From a virus (taxonomy: Duplodnaviria > Caudoviricetes): a DNA stretch of 29,905 nt. The position numbers and the translations under genes were made by a program. Below, piece by piece: positions 1,666 through 28,145 of this stretch (within the stretch, counting starts at the first letter, position 1; the number at the start of each line of letters is the position of its first letter). A model generated the notes under the pieces. The model was not told the origin of the DNA. It saw only the letters and a program-made list of their open reading frames with translations, and did no database searches. The stretch is taken from the IMG/VR virus record IMGVR_UViG_3300048886_001243, positions 1-29,905 of that record; one strand, given 5' to 3'.

Positions 1666-2445
1666 CTAAATTGCGGGTGGTACTTCATAGTGCCACCCGT
1701 TTCTATTTCCAGAACACCGATATTGCACAGTATATGTGGGGATGTTATGTTCTTTCGCGGCGTGTTGTATCGAATCAAACAGTTTCTCACCATCAAACAC
1801 TTTATATCTTCGACGGTTCATAGCTTTCTTATGGTTCTCTATGCCTATGTTCATGGTCATAGGGTTATCAGCTAAAGCCTGTTCTCTCAAAATCTGCCTA
1901 GTTTTATCAGAGACTGGGCGCCCTGTTGCTGCCAGTCCTATTTTCTTTCTCATTTCTGGTGAGTATATATTACCCCAGTTTGAATTCTTAGGTCCGCTCC
2001 TATCCCCAAAACAACCACCCCGTTCATAACCATCGGCTAAGTATGTTTCCACTAGACATTCAGCCACCATCATATGTTTACCGTCTTTTTTAACGGCTTT
2101 CAGTCCGAGTTTTCTATCGGTCATTTTCTGACGGACTTCGGCATCATAATAGATTGATCCTGCTATGTTCTTATTGAGCCATTTACTCTCATTGAGCACC
2201 TTCAATCGGCGGAGTACTTTTTGTTCCCAGACAAGCGCGGGTTTCGCGGTTTTGAATAACCGGCGGACTTCGATAACATCTGGAAGACCAGAATCGGCAA
2301 TGATAGCATGGACATATTTGGATGAAGTGAAGTAGGTAGTAAATAGGTCTTTCGGGTGGCAATCTTTTGCGTATCTTACTCCGTAGTACCATATATCTAG
2401 TTTACTCCAACCTATCAGATAAGTAAAGGGTATCTTTTTACTCAT
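1666..2445 (-). mobile_element. Free-standing homing endonuclease, GIY-YIG (Seg-like) type, with NUMOD3-like and HTH-like C-terminal DNA-binding modules
   Basis: N-terminus PFTYLIGW...WYYGVR...YFTSS...WEQKVL...WLNKN matches the degenerate GIY-YIG pattern. YSPEMRKKIG/VSDKTRQILRE resemble NUMOD3 and FDSIQHAAKEHNI resembles a NUMOD1/HTH module. The gene is antisense within a structural operon. Start placed at the ATG at 2445 (MSKKIPF) rather than 2544. Confidence 0.8.
1674..1708 (+). terminator. Probable intrinsic terminator for the gp18 transcript, overlapping the 3' end of the antisense endonuclease gene
   Basis: CGGGTGGTAC-TTCATA-GTGCCACCCG forms a 10-bp stem with one G-U pair, followed by TTTCTATTT, 30 nt after the gp18 stop. 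Confidence 0.65.
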
Positions 2446-2482
2446 TTTTATATTCCGTATTGTTCGTGCCGCCTTGATATAG

Positions 2483-2500
2483 TATATATAAGCATAAATA
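2483..2500. promoter_or_regulatory. Divergent late-promoter-like elements (palindromic TATATATA 2483-2490; CATAAATA 2493-2500 on +)
   Basis: Both are one-mismatch variants of the T4 late consensus TATAAATA, located between the divergent starts at 2445(-) and 2538(+). Confidence 0.5.
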
Positions 2501-2537
2501 ACTGGAGAAGAATAAAGGATATTAGAGGATAACCAGT

Positions 2538-2942
2538 ATGACATTTGAGAAAGACTTACGCGAAGCAGCTACATTGGATGACCTATTTGATCTAAACGAA
2601 GCGGCTATAAAAGTTGCACAAATCAGCAAAGAATTAGCTATGGATGTTCTGGCGATGGTCAAAGATTTGCCCTGGGATCACTATGTTTATTTGTCGCCAG
2701 CCCAGAAAGGTCGTCTGAAAGATCGCCATGGAAAACTTCCTCGTGGTATGCCAGGCGCAGATCGTCCTCGTGGTTTTCCAGTGACCCTTAGTACTTTCAT
2801 CAAAGCTGCTACGGGGTTGGACGTATATACCGATGGTGATGAATTGGTAAAGGGTGAAAAAACTATTGGTGATGCTGCAAAGATCAAGACGAATAGTGAT
2901 GTATATAAAATGGCTGGTCTAAAAATCACGGGTAATAAATAA
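2538..2942 (+). CDS. Hypothetical protein, possible gp21-processed internal head protein
   Basis: GAGG RBS. The N-terminus MTFEKDLREA...DLNEA carries L-x-E motifs like gp21 cleavage sites. Lies in the late region. Confidence 0.7.
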   Translation: MTFEKDLREAATLDDLFDLNEAAIKVAQISKELAMDVLAMVKDLPWDHYVYLSPAQKGRLKDRHGKLPRGMPGADRPRGFPVTLSTFIKAATGLDVYTDGDELVKGEKTIGDAAKIKTNSDVYKMAGLKITGNK

Positions 2943-10140: not shown

Positions 10141-10148
10141 TATAAATA
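10141..10148 (+). promoter_or_regulatory. T4-type late promoter TATAAATA
   Basis: Exact consensus upstream of gp3. Confidence 0.85.
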
Positions 10149-15169: not shown

Positions 15170-15238
15170 ATGCAAGGACCAGACAAATTTAAGGATGCTT
15201 CCATGAAAAGCCAATCTAAAGAGAACAGAAGGAAATGA
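15170..15238 (+). CDS. Putative 22-aa upstream ORF between gp47 and gp46
   Basis: GGAGG RBS at 15160-15164; ATG directly after the gp47 stop; MQGPDKFKDASMKSQSKENRRK. Confidence 0.45.
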   Translation: MQGPDKFKDASMKSQSKENRRK

Positions 15239-15242
15239 TCCT

Positions 15243-16955
15243 ATTATAAAATTCAAGGCCGTCAGGTACAAGAATTTTCTAGCCACGGGGAACAGTTTTA
15301 CAGAGATTCGACTAAATGATCACCTGAATACCCTAATTATTGGGGATAATGGCGCTGGTAAATCCACTGTATTGGATGCTTTGACCTATGGGCTATTCAA
15401 TAAACCGTTCCGAAAGATCAACAAACCACAGCTAATCTCTAGCGTTAATGAGAAGGGCTGTTTGGTAGAGGTTGAGTTTTCAATCGGACGCCGGCAGTAT
15501 ACTATCCGACGAGGTATGCGTCCTGCGATCTTTGAGATCGTCAAGGACGGAACAATCCTCAATCAATCTGCTTCCGCGAGAGATTACCAGTCGATCCTAG
15601 AAAAGACTATCCTGAAACTCAATTTCAAGTCGTTCACCCAGATTGTCATTTTAGGCAACTCTTCATTCGTACCTTTCATGCAATTACCAGCGGCTCACCG
15701 TCGTGAGGTCATTGAAGACCTTCTGGATATTCAGATTTTCTCCATCATGAATCAATTGCTCAAGGAGAAGATTTCAGACAACAAAGAGGCTCAGCGAACC
15801 GTTGGATTTCAGATCGAATTAAAGGGTGAAAAGATTGCCCTTCAAGAGGCTCATTTGACCAGCCTGAAAGTAAACAACCAGAAAAAGATCAAGGACAATG
15901 AAGCCCAAATAAAGAAATCCCAAGAGGCTATCCAAGATCATGAGGATACCATTGAAGGGCTGTACCAATCGATAGCTGACGATGAGGCTAGTATTACTGA
16001 CCAAAAGGTTGTTCGTACCAGACATACGAAGGTTTCAAACATTATTACCCAACTTCAAACTCAGGTTAGAAACCTAAAAAAGAACCTCAAATTCTACGAG
16101 GACAATGATGAATGCCCGACGTGCCGGCAATCATTAGGAGGGAACCATGTTCATAAGACGGTCGCTGATGATACTTCAAAATTGGAAGAGGCACAGAATG
16201 CCATTGTATCATTAGGTGATAAGTTTACTGTTGGAACCATGCGGATTGGTGATATAGAACAAGTGGTTAAACGTATAGCAGAACACTTCCAAAACCTCTC
16301 AATTGAACAAAACAGCATAACACACTTGCAAGAGTACATCAATACTTACTTGCAGGAGAACGAAAACTTACAAGAGCATAAAGAGTCCTTGAAAGATGAG
16401 GCCTCTAAGCTTCGCGATATGAAGAAGGAGCTAAGAGATCATAATAAAGACAAAGAAAAACTGGTCAAAACGAGAGCAGTTTTTGAAGTTGGCGCTAGAC
16501 TATTAAAGGATAACGGAGTAAAGACAAAGATCATCCGGCAATATATTCCAGTAATAAACAAGTTAGTCAACAAGTATTTAGCCTCTATGGACTTTTTCGT
16601 GAATTTTGAACTTAACGAAGCATTCCACGAGACAATCAAGAGTCGCCACAGGGATACCTTTTCCTACGCCTCTTTCTCTGAAGGCGAGAAACAAAGAATT
16701 GACTTGGCACTATTATTGACCTGGAGAGCCGTGGCTCGTATGAAAAACTCAGTGGCTACAAATCTGATGATGCTGGATGAAGTGTTTGACGCTTCCCTTG
16801 ATGCCAACGGTACTGAGGAGCTCATGAAGATTCTCCAGGGATTTGATAATGATACCAACATCTTTGTTATCAGCCATAAGCAAGAGGCATTGGTAGATAA
16901 ATTCATGGACACCATTCGATTCATGAAACGTGGTAATTTCTCGGAGATTGTGTGA
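15243..16955 (+). CDS. gp46: Recombination ATPase subunit, Rad50/SbcC-like (gp46), probable non-canonical ATT start
   Basis: Frame extends upstream of the track start 15372 through IKFKAVRYKNFLATGN...GDNGAGKST (Walker A). Also has the CPTC zinc hook, FSEGEK signature, LDEVFD and ISH. Confidence 0.95.
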   Translation: MIKFKAVRYKNFLATGNSFTEIRLNDHLNTLIIGDNGAGKSTVLDALTYGLFNKPFRKINKPQLISSVNEKGCLVEVEFSIGRRQYTIRRGMRPAIFEIVKDGTILNQSASARDYQSILEKTILKLNFKSFTQIVILGNSSFVPFMQLPAAHRREVIEDLLDIQIFSIMNQLLKEKISDNKEAQRTVGFQIELKGEKIALQEAHLTSLKVNNQKKIKDNEAQIKKSQEAIQDHEDTIEGLYQSIADDEASITDQKVVRTRHTKVSNIITQLQTQVRNLKKNLKFYEDNDECPTCRQSLGGNHVHKTVADDTSKLEEAQNAIVSLGDKFTVGTMRIGDIEQVVKRIAEHFQNLSIEQNSITHLQEYINTYLQENENLQEHKESLKDEASKLRDMKKELRDHNKDKEKLVKTRAVFEVGARLLKDNGVKTKIIRQYIPVINKLVNKYLASMDFFVNFELNEAFHETIKSRHRDTFSYASFSEGEKQRIDLALLLTWRAVARMKNSVATNLMMLDEVFDASLDANGTEELMKILQGFDNDTNIFVISHKQEALVDKFMDTIRFMKRGNFSEIV

Positions 16956-17515
16956 TGTATAAAGTGATTCTTTCTGATCCTCCATGGAATTTCAAAGTTC
17001 GGTCTGAAAAGGGCATGGGGAAGTCCGCGGAAAATCATTATGATACCATGAGTTTGGATGATATCAAAGCAATTCCAGTAAATGATTGGGCTGACGAATC
17101 GTGTGTTTTATTGATGTGGACCACTGATCCTTTCCTTGAAGAAAGTTTCAATGTCATAAAATCTTGGGGGTTCACATATCGTACCATGGGATTTGTCTGG
17201 GCAAAAACAAATAGATGTTCACCAGGATATTTCATGGGTATGGGGTATTATACGAGATCAAATCCTGAATATTGTCTCTTAGCAGCCCGGGGTACTCCTA
17301 AACGTAAAGCCCGTAATATTCGAAAATTGGTAGTTGATCCCATTAGAGAACATAGCCGAAAGCCTGATAGAATATATCAGGATATTGAAGACTTATTTGA
17401 TGGTCCTTATTTAGAAATGTTTGCTAGAACAAGTCGTCCTGGATGGAAACAGTGGGGTAATGAAACAATGAAATTCGATAGTTCACCCTCTGCGAGCCAC
17501 CTATTTAAAACTTGA
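16952..17515 (+). CDS. MT-A70-family N6-adenine methyltransferase
   Basis: ILSDPPW catalytic motif, HYDTM, LLMWT, WGFTY, GMGYYTRSNPE, HSRKP, LEMFAR, WGNE. Confidence 0.92.
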   Translation: MMYKVILSDPPWNFKVRSEKGMGKSAENHYDTMSLDDIKAIPVNDWADESCVLLMWTTDPFLEESFNVIKSWGFTYRTMGFVWAKTNRCSPGYFMGMGYYTRSNPEYCLLAARGTPKRKARNIRKLVVDPIREHSRKPDRIYQDIEDLFDGPYLEMFARTSRPGWKQWGNETMKFDSSPSASHLFKT

Positions 17516-17540
17516 CATACCTAAGGAAATGTGATACCAT
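17512..17540 (+). promoter_or_regulatory. Sigma70-like promoter, same type as the one at 10695
   Basis: TTGACA-N17-TACCAT; shares CTTGACATA and ATGTGATACCAT with the promoter at 10694-10723. Confidence 0.65.
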
Positions 17541-18430: not shown

Positions 18431-18596
18431 GAAATGGGTAAAGATGAAACCAGGAACTGATTCCTGGTGGGTTCCTAAAATGCGTGAATTGAAGGAGAAA
18501 ATAGACAATGAGAAACATCGTATTAGTGACCGGCGGCTTCGATCCCATACACTCAGGACACCTAGAGTTTTTCAAAGCCGCCGCCGAACTTGGTGA
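18381..18596 (+). CDS. Small hypothetical protein overlapping both neighbours
   Basis: Strong GAGGAG RBS before MDEQTIRDLSETFDQIEKW. Confidence 0.5.
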   Translation: MDEQTIRDLSETFDQIEKWVKMKPGTDSWWVPKMRELKEKIDNEKHRISDRRLRSHTLRTPRVFQSRRRTW

Positions 18597-19290
18597 TGTT
18601 CTAGTCGTTGGTGTGAATAGTGACGAATGGTTGACTAGAAAGAAAGGACGTCCATTCCAATTCTGGGATGAACGAGTTGAAATCATTGACAGTCTGAGAA
18701 TGGTTTCATCGGTCATTGATTTTGACGATACGGATGATACTGCCGTGGATGCGATTAACCGAGTACATACCATCTATCCTCAAGATCGAATCACCTTTGC
18801 AAATGGCGGGGATAGAACGGCGACAAATATTGCCGAAATGGAAGCGGAATATGAAGCGGACGTTGAATTTGTTTTTGGTATAGGTGGTACTGATAAAAAG
18901 AATAGTTCCAGTTGGATCGTCAATGATTTCCTTGAGGAGACTTCAAAGGTTGGTCGAATTTGGGGAGATTATGCCGTTGTCAAAGCATATGGTGATACTT
19001 GTAAGATCAAAGAATTATCCGTTGAGCCAGGAAGATGTCTCAGTAACCAGCGACATTTCAAACGCGAAGAGGTTTGGTTTGTATTGGACGGCAAGGGCAA
19101 AGTGATCATACAGGAAGCTGGTGACACCGATGGAGCCGCTGTTTCTGTCCGAACACTCGAAAAGGGCGACGTTACTTTAATTGAAAAGGTGCAATGGCAT
19201 CAATTGATTAACGCTGGTCCTAAACCATTGCGTATCATTGAAATCCAACATGGTAATGCCTGTTTGGAAGAGGACATTGAAAGAAAATGA
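18508..19290 (+). CDS. Cytidylyl/adenylyltransferase (RfaE/TagD-like) fused to a cupin (type II mannose-6-phosphate isomerase-like)
   Basis: TGGFDPIHSGH (HxGH), VGVNSDEWL, FANGGDR; then RIWGDY, LSNQRHFKREEVW, WHQL, IIEIQHG, EEDIER. Confidence 0.9.
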   Translation: MRNIVLVTGGFDPIHSGHLEFFKAAAELGDVLVVGVNSDEWLTRKKGRPFQFWDERVEIIDSLRMVSSVIDFDDTDDTAVDAINRVHTIYPQDRITFANGGDRTATNIAEMEAEYEADVEFVFGIGGTDKKNSSSWIVNDFLEETSKVGRIWGDYAVVKAYGDTCKIKELSVEPGRCLSNQRHFKREEVWFVLDGKGKVIIQEAGDTDGAAVSVRTLEKGDVTLIEKVQWHQLINAGPKPLRIIEIQHGNACLEEDIERK

Positions 19291-20663
19291 GCCTATTTGA
19301 TAATGAATATGAAATGATCAACGGGTATCAAATTCTATTGGTACCCAACATTACATACCTTGAGGACATTGACAAAGACTCGTATGTCAAATTCATGTCT
19401 GACATTATCCGTGAGTTGAACAAGATACGGGATGATCTATTTTGGCATGCCGTACTTCCCACGGCGTCCGTGCTTTTGGATTTTCCAAACGTGAAACAAT
19501 ATCACGGGCTCAAAATTCAGAGCTACCCAAACTCCATGCGTGGTGATTTTCATTATCAGGACTGGTTGAACATTCTCGATTGGAAGGGGCAGCATTTTGA
19601 TCTGATCTGGTCCCATCTCCCTGAATGGACCACAAACATTGACAATCTGGTCCATAACGTCACTAATCATGGCGGTACCCCGATCATGGGATATTGTCAC
19701 TGGACAGAGACACCAGAATTTGCGAAGTATGACCGGACATACCTGATGAATAATCTAACCGGTATGCTTCCAATGAAGGTCTGTGGGTACAATACTCAGC
19801 ACCAGATTAACAATATTCTCACAATCGCCCAACAATATTTTTCGCTGCCAGTGATGAATAAACTCCAGAAGATCATGCAGCCTATGTTGATTGGTATCAA
19901 CGATGCAGAGATTCAAGAGGAACCATCTGATCAATATGGTAAGGTCATTGTTTTCAATCACCGCACCCAACAATATAGAGGATGGACAACGTTTCTAGAA
20001 GCCATCAAATTACTCCGTGCGGACCAACAGGATTTCTCCGTATGGGCAAGCTTGGCTGATCCATCTGGTATGCAACAAGCGAAAGAGATTCTAGAAGATA
20101 CGTCATTCATCAATACCACTCCTGCAGATAGTCGAGCCGATTATCTTAACCAATTACGCCATTCTTGCGTCGGGGTATTGTGTGGAAATCGTTGGAGTAT
20201 CTCAGTTCTAGACGGGTTGTCACAGGGGCTGCCATATATACATGAGCCAGTACCTGAAATGGATGAACTGTTTGGGCATAATAAGTTTGAAGCAAATTCG
20301 ACGAACCAGCTATATTTAATGCTCAAAAAATGTTTGAAGGATAACAAACATAGGATGATGAGAGCCCATAAGGCTATTCAGGTTGCTAAGGAAAGTTCTT
20401 GGGGAAGCCGAATTCAAATCATCAATGACCATATTCAGGCATCCATAAATACTGGTAGAGTTTCCTCGGAACGATCTGAGAAACGAGAGGAACTGGTTGA
20501 AGCTGTACGGCACCATAAGAAAGTGACCAAGTCCTTGTTGACGGTAAAGATGGGTTGGGGTAGAGGTATATCCTTTACATCGTATCGTAATTACCTCAGA
20601 GAACATCCACAGATTACGATGACCTTTGATGGAATGCATGAATTTTTTGAGTGGCGAGAATGA
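19287..20663 (+). CDS. GT-B-fold glycosyltransferase-like protein with an extra C-terminal, possibly winged-helix, domain
   Basis: FDLIWSHLPE, YCHW, VIVFNHR, WSISVLDGLSQGLPYI (degenerate GT4 nucleotide-sugar motif), followed by about 65 extra residues. ATGA-coupled on both sides. Confidence 0.75.
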   Translation: MSLFDNEYEMINGYQILLVPNITYLEDIDKDSYVKFMSDIIRELNKIRDDLFWHAVLPTASVLLDFPNVKQYHGLKIQSYPNSMRGDFHYQDWLNILDWKGQHFDLIWSHLPEWTTNIDNLVHNVTNHGGTPIMGYCHWTETPEFAKYDRTYLMNNLTGMLPMKVCGYNTQHQINNILTIAQQYFSLPVMNKLQKIMQPMLIGINDAEIQEEPSDQYGKVIVFNHRTQQYRGWTTFLEAIKLLRADQQDFSVWASLADPSGMQQAKEILEDTSFINTTPADSRADYLNQLRHSCVGVLCGNRWSISVLDGLSQGLPYIHEPVPEMDELFGHNKFEANSTNQLYLMLKKCLKDNKHRMMRAHKAIQVAKESSWGSRIQIINDHIQASINTGRVSSERSEKREELVEAVRHHKKVTKSLLTVKMGWGRGISFTSYRNYLREHPQITMTFDGMHEFFEWRE

Positions 20664-21700
20664 AAATATTACTGCCCTATATCGATCTAAACAACCATTC
20701 GATAAATCATCCACAAGTAACCGGAGGTTCAGAATTGTTCTGTAGGCATCTGGTCAATAATTTTGATACCTATATTTCTCAGATACCTATTGAGGCCCTG
20801 AATTACAACCTCAAAGAAAAGAATGCGATTGTCCAAAGAATCATTGAGGAAGCTATAACCTTCGACGTGGACATAATCGTATCCAATTTCTCAGGATCAA
20901 TCTTTGCCGGGCATGAGATAACGACAAAATCTCCGATCCCCTTGATGGTCATTGAGCATTGCATTTATCCAATGTTGACGGTAATCGCCAAATGGAACAA
21001 TGTGGTCAATCGTGGTCACTCTGTTTTCTTTGTGTCGAAAGCCCAGGTGATGCGATATCAAAAGATGGCAGACCGTTCTGAACAATCCCTATATACAACA
21101 GGGTATTACATTAGACCGTCGTATTGTCATGGAGAAAAATCTGCCATACAAGATGTTGAATATGATTGCATGACTATTGGTCGTAGTTACAAGGGTAAAG
21201 ACCCATTCAAGCTTCATAGATTTTTGAAGGATACAGACCTACGAAGCCTTGTTATATCGTCAAGAACCGATTATGATGACCAGGCATATTACGAGAAAAA
21301 CAAACATTGGGACCATACCATTTGGGATCAACCGTATGATGTTGTGATGGATACTCTAGGTAAAGCAGCCACGTATTTTTCTACTTGTGAATATGAGACC
21401 TGGGGAATTACAGCTTTGGAAGCCTTGAGTCATGGCGTACCGATCATATTGAGCTCCGATAAGGATATCCCTCATGCGTCTGAAGTTATCGCAGCCAGCC
21501 ATAGACATTACCGAAGTATCCCAAAAGGGTCAGCAAGTGAGTTGATTCAGAGTATCCAAGAGAATGATCTTGACCGTCAAGAGGTTCAAGATATGACTTG
21601 GGAGAAACATAGCGAAAAGAAGTGGAGAGAAAACTTCGAAACCGCGGCCCAAATGACGATTGACAAATTCAACAAACACAATAATTCACTATTTGGTTAA
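20660..21700 (+). CDS. GT4-like (GT-B) glycosyltransferase
   Basis: MKILL...TGGSE, FVSK, IGR...KDP, ETWGITALEALSHGVPII (E-x7-E motif). ATG at 20660 overlaps the previous stop. Confidence 0.88.
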   Translation: MKILLPYIDLNNHSINHPQVTGGSELFCRHLVNNFDTYISQIPIEALNYNLKEKNAIVQRIIEEAITFDVDIIVSNFSGSIFAGHEITTKSPIPLMVIEHCIYPMLTVIAKWNNVVNRGHSVFFVSKAQVMRYQKMADRSEQSLYTTGYYIRPSYCHGEKSAIQDVEYDCMTIGRSYKGKDPFKLHRFLKDTDLRSLVISSRTDYDDQAYYEKNKHWDHTIWDQPYDVVMDTLGKAATYFSTCEYETWGITALEALSHGVPIILSSDKDIPHASEVIAASHRHYRSIPKGSASELIQSIQENDLDRQEVQDMTWEKHSEKKWRENFETAAQMTIDKFNKHNNSLFG

Positions 21701-21704
21701 TGAA

Positions 21705-23009
21705 ATGAGCGAACGACTACCTTACGATGACCAACTGGAAATCATGTTTGAGGAATGGGCTAAGATGGAGGATGAATTATCCCATACTGATCCGATTTCT
21801 GAAGAGGACAAGGATACCGCTCGAATCAGTGAGTTGGTCAAGAACGATTTGAATCAATTCAACCACATGACTGTTGAGGAGTATACCCTTTGGCAGAAAT
21901 GGGAGCAAATCAACCGCGTCTACCCTAGTACCACTTCATTGTTCGGTGATTCTGAGCCAGTCAACAAAGAACAAGCTATGGCTATCCAACGGGTAAAGAG
22001 TAAAATTTGGGTACCAGAAACTCCTGAATCGTATCAGGCTCTAGAGCCTGAACTGGTATATACTCATGAGGAGACAGAGAATTGGAATCCACTCGCCAAT
22101 GACTGGACAACCATGCGCCACTTTATTCATACCCAAATGCATGCCGGTGTCATTGGTCGAGCTATGAATTTCTTGGTTCGTGATAAGGTGACAGGCGGAT
22201 ATCTTGGTGTGATAACTATCTCCGGTGATTTTCTAGATATGACCGCCCGTGATGAAAAGATCGGTTGGACCAGAGAACAACGAACCGCGGAACAAAGAAT
22301 TCAATATACCGCGATTGGTTCAACGATTGTACCTACTCAGCCATTGGGGTTCAATTATGTTGGTGGTAAACTTCTGGCTTTGCTTTGTCTCTCTGATACA
22401 GTTGCAAACAAATGGGAGGAATTGTACGGCAAAAAGCTTATCGGGCTATCCACGACCTCGTTGTATGGTAAGAACAAGCGCGGGCATGGTATGTCGCAAT
22501 ATGACAACCTGAAGTATTGGAAGAAAATGGGTTATTCTAAGGGTAGCGTTTCCTATCAACTCTCTCGACCAGTACGGAAACAAATGCGCCAGTGGCTCCG
22601 TTGGCATCATCCGAGAAAATATTGGGAGTGGCTGATCGCCTCAGATAAGGACGGTAAGCCGTTGAAACGTGACGCGACCAATCGATCAAACCAATATGCA
22701 TACCGGAAGTTGGGTATCTCCGGGAAGATGTTCTCGTCCGCTCATGAACGCGGTATCTATTTTTGCCGGTTGTATGAAAACTCGGATGCTTTTCTTAAGG
22801 ATGAAATCACTGAAAGTGATCTCCGACCTAGGTTCGATAATACCGAGGACGCCCTAGCTGAAATCTGGAAGTCAAAATATGCGTCCCGGCGTATATCCAG
22901 TCTCCAGAAGAATGATCGCGTAAGTAGTGGAACTCTGTTCTATAACGACCTGATGGGTGTTCCCTGGGAAGAGGCGAAAGACAAATATCTTAGCCAAGTC
23001 GGTCGCTAG
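21705..23009 (+). CDS. DUF4338 / Druantia DruA-like protein
   Basis: GRAMNFLVRD..TG.YLGVI, RDEKIGW, PLGFNYVGGKLLA, TTSLYG, SQY, MGYSKG resemble the DruA/DUF4338 conserved blocks as recalled, not searched. Start placed at MSERL (21705). Confidence 0.75.
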   Translation: MSERLPYDDQLEIMFEEWAKMEDELSHTDPISEEDKDTARISELVKNDLNQFNHMTVEEYTLWQKWEQINRVYPSTTSLFGDSEPVNKEQAMAIQRVKSKIWVPETPESYQALEPELVYTHEETENWNPLANDWTTMRHFIHTQMHAGVIGRAMNFLVRDKVTGGYLGVITISGDFLDMTARDEKIGWTREQRTAEQRIQYTAIGSTIVPTQPLGFNYVGGKLLALLCLSDTVANKWEELYGKKLIGLSTTSLYGKNKRGHGMSQYDNLKYWKKMGYSKGSVSYQLSRPVRKQMRQWLRWHHPRKYWEWLIASDKDGKPLKRDATNRSNQYAYRKLGISGKMFSSAHERGIYFCRLYENSDAFLKDEITESDLRPRFDNTEDALAEIWKSKYASRRISSLQKNDRVSSGTLFYNDLMGVPWEEAKDKYLSQVGR

Positions 23010-26715: not shown

Positions 26716-27684
26716 ATGGAAATTTCGATTGAAATCGCTGAATTAAGAAAACGAAAAATTATGGTGTGTACCCCGATGTACGGAGGAATGTGCGCCGGGA
26801 TGTATACAAAATCCACAGCCGACCTAGCAATACTTTCAAGTCAGTATGGTATTGAGGTTCGGTTTTTCTACATTTTTAACGAGAGCCTAATCACCCGCGC
26901 CAGGAATTATCTAGTTGATGAATTCCTCCGGAGCGAGTGTACCCACATGATTTTCATCGATGCCGATATCGGCTTCGATCCAAATGATGTTTTGTCCCTT
27001 GCCGCGCTCGCGGAACCCGGGTCAGATTATGAGATCATTTGTGGGCCTTACCCAAAAAAGACCATCGCCTGGGAAAAGATCAAGCGAGCCGTCGATAAAG
27101 GCTTTGCCGATCAAGATCCAGACGCCCTAGAAAATTATGTCGGCGACTATGTTTTCAACCCAGTGGCCGATACCCCTGAAATCCGACTAGACATTCCTGT
27201 CCAGGTAATGGAAGGCGGTACAGGGTTCATGATGATCCAGCGAAGTGCCCTAGAAAAATATGCTGCCGCATATCCAGAATTCACCTATTTGCCCGATCAT
27301 GTCCGTACCGATTCCTTCGATGGCACCCGCGAAATCACGGCATTCTTTGATTGCATCATTGACCAGGATAGTAAACGATATTTATCCGAGGATTATATGT
27401 TTTGCCAGTGGGCTCAAAAAGCCGACATTAAGGTATGGCTGTGCCCATGGATGAAACTCCAGCATTACGGATCCTATAACTTTGCCGGCAGCCTGATTGA
27501 CATTGCACAAATCGGTGCCTCTGCTACCGTCGATGGTGAGTACCTACAGAGAAAGAAGGGCAAGCCTATGGATGCCTTGCCTATCAAAACGTTAGACCAA
27601 ATCAAGAATTCCCCAAAAGAAGCCAAGAAACCAAAGAGTCCAAAGAGAGGTCGTAAAAAGGCAGCTAAAAGGAAAAAGAAATAA
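26716..27684 (+). CDS. GT-A-fold glycosyltransferase-like protein with a basic C-terminal tail
   Basis: TPMYGG, ESLITRARN, FIDADIGF (DxD), GPYPKK, GTGFMMI, LSEDYMFC, LQHYG. Tail reads SPKEAKKPKSPKRGRKKAAKRKKK. TATATATA upstream at 26670-26677. Confidence 0.82.
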   Translation: MEISIEIAELRKRKIMVCTPMYGGMCAGMYTKSTADLAILSSQYGIEVRFFYIFNESLITRARNYLVDEFLRSECTHMIFIDADIGFDPNDVLSLAALAEPGSDYEIICGPYPKKTIAWEKIKRAVDKGFADQDPDALENYVGDYVFNPVADTPEIRLDIPVQVMEGGTGFMMIQRSALEKYAAAYPEFTYLPDHVRTDSFDGTREITAFFDCIIDQDSKRYLSEDYMFCQWAQKADIKVWLCPWMKLQHYGSYNFAGSLIDIAQIGASATVDGEYLQRKKGKPMDALPIKTLDQIKNSPKEAKKPKSPKRGRKKAAKRKKK

Positions 27685-28145
27685 TGGAAGAAGTACCATT
27701 AGTGAAAATTGATTACAAGTTTAATGAACCAGCCCTGCTGGACGAATTGCGAAAATACATTGATGGCACCTACCAAGAGCATTACGCCAAAGACAAATAT
27801 CAGGCTACTGAGGTAATCGTGGATGCCGGACACGGCATCGGGTTCTGTCTAGGCAACATCTGGAAATATTCCAAGCGATGGGGTAAGAAAGATGGTAAGC
27901 AACGTCGAGATATCTTGAAGATTCTCCATTATGCCATCATCCTACTCAAGGCAATCGACCTCGAAGAGGAACGAGCTAAGGTGCCATTCAAACCCTTGCC
28001 CGAGTTTGACAGGGAGGACGAGGCCAAACGCCAGGCCGAGGGGAAAGAAGCCGCCGTGGATGAAAATGGGTGTCGAAAAGAACCTGCGCGATTGGTCCCT
28101 CGATATCCGAAGAAATGGTCCACGGTGATGCCTTTGAAACAATGA
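27684..28145 (+). CDS. DUF3310-like (SaV / T7 gp1.7-related) protein
   Basis: YKFNE...TYQEHY, GFCLGNIWKYSKRWGKK, DILKILHYA motifs. TAATG-coupled to the glycosyltransferase. Confidence 0.8.
   Translation: MEEVPLVKIDYKFNEPALLDELRKYIDGTYQEHYAKDKYQATEVIVDAGHGIGFCLGNIWKYSKRWGKKDGKQRRDILKILHYAIILLKAIDLEEERAKVPFKPLPEFDREDEAKRQAEGKEAAVDENGCRKEPARLVPRYPKKWSTVMPLKQ

Follow-up and report, generated by a model that had tools for sequence, protein, structure and literature searches.

Four consecutive genes of the T4-like phage record IMGVR_UViG_3300048886_001243 (IMG/VR) are here read as a DNA hypermodification module, in which a DruA-like protein of the GNAT fold would prepare a base for two glycosyltransferases (GTs), GT1 and GT2. 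The 29.9-kb window, meaning the whole stretch analysed, runs from the tail sheath to the clamp loader, and the four genes, all on the + strand, lie in it between a peptide deformylase gene and a peptidase-CobS pair (Table 1). The initial annotation had placed a tightly coupled cassette of a nucleotidyltransferase-cupin, two GT-B enzymes and a DUF4338-like protein between gp46 and gp45; the four open reading frames (ORFs), the ATGA overlaps at 19287-19290 and 20660-20663, the 4-nt gap at 21701-21704 and the flanking gp46 (end 16955) and gp45 (start 28234) were all found in the sequence. It overlooked a winged-helix tail on GT1 and the GNAT fold of the DruA-like protein. DNA modification of some kind is very probable, and hypermodification stands as the best reading of the module, supported by the co-occurrence of the GTs with the DUF4338-like gene in related phages. 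As to the route, we lean towards one in which the GNAT is predicted to install an aminoacyl-derived handle that GT1 glycosylates and GT2 extends. After replication, the DruA-family GNAT would acylate a DNA base, probably at adenine N6 and perhaps with an aminoacyl-tRNA as donor, like Mom. To this handle GT1, or a homolog of T4 beta-glucosyltransferase (BGT) elsewhere, would attach a first sugar, either at a hydroxyl if the adduct derives from Ser/Thr or at an amide or amine if it derives from Gly, and GT2 would extend the product by a second sugar. The nucleotidyltransferase-cupin may supply the sugar donor in this phage, although the pathway would be independent of it. The likely purpose would be shielding of the genome from host nucleases, exchange of GTs varying the coat. 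We infer DNA as the substrate, as well as the base, the donor of the acyl group, the group that accepts the sugar, the order of steps and the sugars, and with them every chemical step.

Table 1. Coordinates of the module and of other features in the window.
Feature	Position	Strand	Size and remarks
Gene 1, nucleotidyltransferase-cupin	18508-19290	+	260 aa; PF01467 (RfaE-domain-II/TagD-like) and PF01050 phosphomannose isomerase-type cupin; apparently an optional accessory
Gene 2, GT1	19287-20663	+	458 aa
GT1, GT-B catalytic region	19287-20459	+	residues ~11-391; predicted first-sugar transferase
GT1, winged-helix domain	20460-20663	+	residues 392-458 (67 residues); predicted DNA-binding
Gene 3, GT2	20660-21700	+	346 aa from ATG; GT4-type GT-B, invariant E246-x7-E254; predicted second-sugar transferase
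Gene 4, DruA-like	21705-23009 (core ~22026-22838)	+	434 aa from ATG, 449 aa from in-frame TTG at 21660; DruA/DUF4338-family GNAT-fold protein; predicted handle-installing DNA acyl/aminoacyltransferase
Sigma70-like promoter match	17512-17540	+	TTGACA-17-TACCAT with TG, 10/12; weak
MT-A70 adenine methyltransferase	16952-17515		
Putative third GT	26716-27684		phrog_1574
DUF3310 protein	27684-28145		
Homing-endonuclease-like gene	1666-2544	-	phrog_314, E 2.9e-16

The linkage of the GTs to the DruA-like gene supports this reading. Locus counts refer to the best 80 matches per scan (80 of 395, 80 of 243 and 80 of 195) and are not a random sample, and for pooled counts loci were clustered at 95%, neighbours were taken within 5 kb and clusters with sufficient flanks were counted apart. 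A DruA-like gene was present in 54 of the 80 GT1 loci, always upstream and in 33 directly abutting, and in 24 of the 25 loci with at least 5 kb of upstream sequence, so that the co-occurrence in related phages on which the initial annotation had made its proposal depend is borne out. Among well-flanked GT1 clusters DruA was found in 22 of 24, and DruA or Pfam Mom in 23 of 24, Pfam Mom genes adjoining GT1 where DruA is missing (L033, L037, L039 and L060). In L033 and L039 (6047-10128), four to six Mom-like genes follow GT1 immediately as an array. Elsewhere the slot of GT1 is occupied by a BGT-like family, homologous to T4 BGT (Atlas feature score 0.97 to PF09198 clusters), with DruA in 16 of 17 well-flanked clusters; in the cultured phage HTVC008M this is gp104 (phrog_7922, E 1.4e-4), two genes upstream of a DruA-like gene. 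GT1 and the BGT-like family were never found together in the 92 GT1 and 46 BGT-like clusters. The GNAT-GT pair was found after gp44, after gp43, beside gp47 and before the peptidase. A second phage lineage has it as well, there adjoining an HD-domain gene and baseplate genes, and a single insertion hotspot therefore fails as an explanation. Comparison of GT1 with the BGT-like family as detectable homologs was not significant, and the BGT-like profile gave nothing useful against PDB sequences.

The genomic dependence is one-way: GT1 and the BGT-like enzymes need a GNAT of the DruA/Mom families, whereas the GNAT does not need a GT. For this reason the GNAT is more likely to come first in the pathway, providing the handle that is otherwise missing, than to add the last decoration as originally suggested. 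The DruA motif occurs in ~5,600 viral stretches, and the 80 loci closest to the window copy are near-core and mostly in gp46-deformylase-DruA placement; 3 of them have an adjoining GT, each time of the BGT-like family, and none has GT1 or GT2, many of the flanks being short. A DruA-like gene was also found in 31 phage-collection records, mostly of cultured cyanophages and pelagiphages and none with a GT1 match, and within DruA clusters at 72% identity the partner varies among GT1, BGT-like and none. Two DruA-like paralogs of different subfamilies are encoded by HTVC008M (NC_020484.1; 86116-87258 and 99535-100656), and loci L001, L202 and L255 likewise hold two DruA-like genes. Proteins with GmrSD_N (DUF262), some with HNH, and other variable genes of 400-600 aa were found inserted in the module, in some loci separating DruA from GT1 and in others BGT-like from GT2 (L044:455-2221, L061:6094-7665, L071:7052-8818 and others); they could be nucleases telling modified from unmodified DNA.

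Membership of gene 4 in the DruA/DUF4338 family, as first proposed, was confirmed by PF14236 (E 3.1e-18, 66.4 bits against a cut-off of 27) and by the PADLOC DruA profile (E 1.8e-16). These matches also fit another reading, anti-defence mimicry, in which the phage enzyme copies a Druantia-type self-mark of the host and the GTs are separate cargo gathering beside it. Druantia I is reported to mark adenines, and evasion by Druad1 to track the adenine mark, in bioRxiv 10.1101/2024.04.14.589459, and Dam, N4/N6 methyltransferases (MTases) and GmrSD_N-HNH genes insert beside the GNAT as well. Mimicry leaves unexplained, however, that the GNAT is followed from one genomic position to another by two GT families which are unrelated and mutually exclusive, and as an account of the whole module it is improbable; it could be the role of the GNAT in its GT-free state. 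The phage gene is near-core and coupled to GTs, unlike that of Druantia type I, and no DruB-E gene stands beside it, the neighbours being GT2 and the phage peptidase and no other Dru match being obtained among the 6 window proteins scanned in PADLOC.

The AlphaFold2 (AF2) model of the DruA-like protein (pLDDT 84.2) has a GNAT core fold, and the top 50 matches in VIA are almost all GNAT-fold proteins, the best being Mu Mom (PF25680, PDB 8bv8; Z 9.6, root-mean-square deviation (rmsd) 4.2, 174 of 202 residues aligned). The two share the GNAT fold with insertions, and in some loci a Mom-family gene stands in for DruA next to GT1, as given above, but Mom has ~240 aa, the profiles have no significant match, and Mom acts alone and yields 6-NcmdA without a sugar. 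Mom takes glycine from Gly-tRNA and places it on adenine N6, after which a rearrangement takes place (Silva et al. 2026, PMC13219725); its catalytic residues are R111, S124, D149 and R151. In the DruA-like GNAT, R182, Q212, T250/T251 and Y266 are invariant. The DruA-like protein gave no match to PF25680 at E 0.01, and the DruA profile gave nothing useful against PDB sequences.

GT1 is a GT-B enzyme as annotated, its AF2 model being confident (pLDDT 89.6) with two Rossmann domains, and its match to PF00534 (E 0.0051) lies below the cut-off. The best structural match has a GT4-like fold (Z 26.1, rmsd 3.2, 350 residues aligned). GT4-type retaining GTs carry an E-x7-E donor-binding motif, of which GT1 keeps only the second acidic position, as the invariant D309 in W-x-I-S-x-x-D-G. 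The C-terminal tail has the order H-E-H-H-E-E by DSSP on the AF2 model, which is the H1-b1-H2-H3-b2-b3 topology of a winged helix, and reached TM 0.81 to the model of an archaeal helix-turn-helix regulator and 0.70-0.74 to MarR-like models, all below the naming bar of the tool. The tail is kept across the family; 156 of the 175 ORFs of the family carry a net positive charge there, the window copy only slightly so (12 K+R against 10 D+E). On the model the tail is a winged helix, and DNA binding is predicted for it. The family was found in 395 IMG/VR viral stretches and forms 356 clusters (50% identity, E < 1e-10), while in cellular data only 6 short contigs of metagenome-assembled genomes had it among 185,579 GTDB species genomes; judged from these searches, GT1 is a virus-restricted family. 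The GT1 profile had no match among PDB sequences, nor did tblastn give one in 50,697 phage records. On a metagenome-assembled contig (L259:7962-11344), GT1 faces an oppositely oriented gene for a DruA protein of 621 aa with an extra N-terminal domain.

The top folds for GT1 are GT4 enzymes of lipopolysaccharide (LPS), lipid and thiol pathways and the nucleotidyltransferase resembles RfaE/TagD, which would also suit auxiliary genes for glycosylation of host surface polysaccharide, LPS or virion proteins; cyanophage HIGH nucleotidyltransferase and cupin genes have been described in surface-glycan clusters (PMC7824862). Such a role may well hold for gene 1 alone. For the module it has only a slight chance of being right, since GT1 has the winged-helix tail and is nearly absent from cellular genomes, a BGT homolog occupies the same slot, GT2 occurs within TET operons and the cassette is without the late-promoter motif. 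This motif, the TATAAATA of T4 late promoters, has four matches in the window, all in the structural half and none beyond position 10148.

Gene 3 was likewise annotated as a GT-B enzyme, an assignment that its sequence supports (PF00534, E 1.3e-6), and GT2 keeps both acidic positions of the GT4 motif, E246 and E254 being invariant. The family occurs in several contexts, namely DruA with GT1, DruA with BGT-like, C5MT-TET-GT2-TAGT and hydroxymethylase loci. Among 100 distinct GT2 ORFs, 31 are near DruA, 28 of these also with GT1 or BGT-like, and 9 are next to TET, with TAGT present in all 9, DruA in none and typically the order C5MT-TET-GT2-TAGT; more distant members lie within clusters of thymidylate-synthase-like hydroxymethylases. 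In a tree built by a quick method, one supported clade contains TET-linked and DruA-linked members intermingled. In the MTase-TET operons GT2 has the GT-I position, that of a known second-sugar enzyme, the likeness to the tested GT14-I and GT43-I being one of gene position. The pairing of GT2 with three unrelated first GTs would follow if GT2 accepted a sugar. A tblastn search of the 50,697 phage records with GT2 gave one weak match. Some clusters with GT2 (L137, L140, L147, L148, L155 and L158) hold a thymidylate-synthase-like gene, a dCMP deaminase, an MTase, myo-inositol-1-phosphate synthase, a HMUDK_hel-domain protein and a C5-MTase-like gene, possibly for an inositol-bearing pyrimidine modification.

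The absence of a base-handle enzyme from the window, pointed out in the initial annotation, was confirmed among the window proteins for hydroxymethylase, C5-MTase and TET, and neither hydroxymethylase nor TET was found within 5 kb in any of the 92 GT1 or 46 BGT-like clusters. The ThyA/hydroxymethylase family is missing from two genomes of the BGT-like type, HTVC008M (complete) and G005 (95% complete), three controls being positive, and was found in none of the remaining partial records except G004; C5-MTase was found in none of 11 records, with 2 positive controls. For G005, 71 of 145 ORFs were scanned in Pfam, the others having been judged on inspection to be structural, replication or doubtful ORFs. 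The handle could still come from elsewhere, be it from an oxygenase that went unrecognised, from a hydroxymethylase of divergent type or through direct attack on base or phosphate, the GNAT then acylating the sugar later or modifying another base. BGT, TAGT and GT2 relatives act on or accompany pathways of 5-hydroxymethylcytosine (5hmC), TAGT stands beside DruA-GT pairs in 5 of 92 GT1 and 11 of 46 BGT-like clusters, TET exclusion is incomplete and 2-oxoglutarate (2OG) oxygenases are common in these phages. Such an origin is nevertheless rather unlikely, as the GT is almost never without the GNAT, and the GNAT is mostly without a GT nearby and therefore has a GT-independent substrate.

Several observations weigh against the proposed route. 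Exclusion of handle genes in near-complete genomes applies to the BGT-like version only, the GT1-bearing records searched being 28-68% complete, and one of these with GT1 and DruA (G004, locus L081) has a full ThyA-family gene, assigned at family level. A C5-MTase follows GT1 directly in L026. No TET was found in HTVC008M and G005 by a profile of our own that covers one clade, the Pfam TET controls having failed, and HTVC008M encodes several 2OG-Fe(II) oxygenases. One GT1 locus (L325) and one BGT-like locus (L396) are without a GNAT within 5 kb, two loci (L093 and L094) carry DruA and GT2 without a first GT, and the window DruA branches at the base of a clade mostly without GTs in a tree by FastTree only. 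The match to Mom is tied within 1 Z with many generic GNAT acetyltransferases, Foldseek matches are mostly of the GNAT fold but none at E < 0.001, and the alignment of DruA with Mom sequence profiles was not significant (hhalign probability 4%). T4 alpha-glucosyltransferase (AGT), a precedent invoked in the initial annotation, was matched by the GT1 model with Z 18.8 and rank 26th, but among solved structures GT4 enzymes for small molecules and lipids stand nearer (Z 24-26).

The last such point comes from a close strain, L480, in which GT1 was swapped while GT2 stayed 97% identical, a pattern that the proposed route must absorb. This strain has the same gene order, with most core proteins 95-98%, DruA 93% and the nucleotidyltransferase 88% identical, and a GT1 only 30.5% identical to that of the window and 60-67% identical to GT1s of other phages. 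Nucleotide identity is 39-50% over ~19300-20650, the GT1 ORF itself, as against 74-85% over the cupin-coding half of gene 1 and the final portion of DruA. The GT1 gene has thus been replaced whole and in place, at the edges of the ORF, as expected for a diversified defence-evasion trait.

L480 is also the only place where the order of the four genes was seen again, and a conserved four-gene cassette, as had been supposed, was rejected: DruA is usually without an adjoining GT, and none of the closest 80 viral homologs of the nucleotidyltransferase-cupin, from a family in ~6,000 viral stretches, has a DruA-like gene, GT1 or GT2 within 4 kb. Gene 1 is the fusion originally described, with HSGH at residues 15-18 and matches to Pfam CTP_transf_like (E 9.8e-13) and MannoseP_isomer (E 5.8e-19). 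The match to TIGR02199 (E 2.6e-19) is below cut-off, and the NCBIfam equivalogs for RfaE/HldE heptose adenylyltransferase and TagD scored 69.5 against 181.5 and 46.6 against 165.4 bits. Fused forms abut GT1 in two other lineages (L022/L023/L025/L042/L043) and lie 2-3 genes downstream of DruA in four loci (L195/L201/L206/L224), and a short unfused nucleotidyltransferase is often found between DruA and BGT-like genes. By these contexts gene 1 is an optional accessory and no part of the conserved core. Of its proposed role as maker of an NDP-sugar or polyol, the requirement for the pathway falls with the same 0 of 80, whereas donor supply in this phage is plausible because a cytidylyltransferase is needed for heptosylation of 5hmC, alongside a BGT-like GT, in one tested cluster described by Pyle et al. 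(bioRxiv 10.1101/2023.12.21.572611); by this analogy gene 1 may supply an NDP-sugar.

A further reading has the module modify host DNA, tRNA or protein for takeover and not protect phage DNA. GNATs act also on tRNA and proteins (PMC13219725), DUF4338 GNATs fused to DndF have been read as possible protein-targeting co-effectors (PMC10853773), and the likely promoter is of early type, if weak. The match at 17512-17540 could on its sequence drive a small ORF and the deformylase gene through to the cassette; sigma70-like sites in the window number 20 against 14.8 +/- 3.8 by chance, barely over expectation. The precedents of BGT and GT2 point instead to phage DNA, and the cassette stands among replication genes in T4-like relatives, so that takeover has very little probability.

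Compared with known systems, the module resembles the C5-MTase-TET-GT-I-GT-II clusters (Burke 2021, PMC8256090, and Pyle et al.) in having two sequential DNA GTs, with GT2 homologs at the GT-I position, but has no adjoining C5-MTase or TET and has a GNAT in the handle position. T4 gp42 hydroxymethylase with AGT and BGT is likewise a system of GT-B enzymes in the replication block, with a BGT homolog interchangeable with GT1; here no hydroxymethylase was found in the window or within 5 kb of GT1 clusters, and GT1 differs by its added winged-helix tail and has structural matches closer than AGT. In the literature cited, phage DNA glycosylation starts from a pyrimidine hydroxyl (5hmC, 5hmU or 5hoC). 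DUF4338 is called a GNAT in PMC10853773, and a homolog of the DruA-like gene, S-SCSM2R ORF152, is named 'methylcarbamoylase mom' in PMC12801897, a label predicted from structure, the passages cited making no link to DruA or a GT. A GNAT-GT pairing was not found in the literature searched, the main text of Pyle et al. containing no GNAT, acetyltransferase or DruA, and an earlier description is possible. The likeness of the family to Mom is thus in print, whereas the GNAT-GT route is probably undescribed; the link of GT2 to TET operons, the place of the nucleotidyltransferase outside the core and the GT1 allele swap are new from this window.

It is possible, and put forward tentatively, that this is a third route to glycosylated DNA besides hydroxymethylase and TET. 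A purine would receive its amino-acid-derived handle from a GNAT of the DruA/Mom type, and the first glycosylated adenine would then be built by GTs that can stand in for each other, either GT1 with its winged helix or a BGT homolog, with GT2 lengthening the product. Such a route would be widespread in abundant aquatic phages and varied by GT allele swapping, and DruA would be the self-marking enzyme still missing from Druantia type I. That system has no methylase domain yet shows a PacBio adenine mark at CAGCTGNC, for which bioRxiv 10.1101/2024.04.14.589459 gives the responsible gene as unknown, and DruA is a candidate for it. If true, attachment of a handle by a GNAT would be a novel chemistry of nucleobases, in a family of ~5,600 viral stretches, and heavily modified genomes may be under-sampled by sequencing, which would bias viral ecology. 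The route is directly testable. Among cultured phages HTVC008M has the BGT-like version, while many cyanophages as well as Mosig, S-SM2 and S-CAM9 have the GNAT and nothing closely homologous to GT1 or BGT-like, and platforms for reconstitution in E. coli are at hand.

The adenine MTase and the DUF3310 protein noted nearby in the initial annotation are both present, the former being of the MT-A70 type. Its supposed third GT is an ORF of the unknown-function family phrog_1574, with a weak Anp1 match (E 0.0022). No tie of the three to the pathway was found, and all are common in this block. The MT-A70 gene directly follows gp46, and in L028-L032 such a gene is immediately upstream of the DruA-like gene; of the 80 closest loci, 32 have the phrog_1574 gene near DruA, often downstream of it by one small gene. 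The GC content of the four genes equals that of the flanking genes. The homing-endonuclease-like gene sits, in opposite orientation, between the genes for tail sheath and tail tube. The gp46 ORF, as called from TTG at 15372, lacks the N-terminus of its family (region 15170-15372) and has 527 aa against ~570 aa in relatives, and that of L480 is likewise short, with 540 aa.

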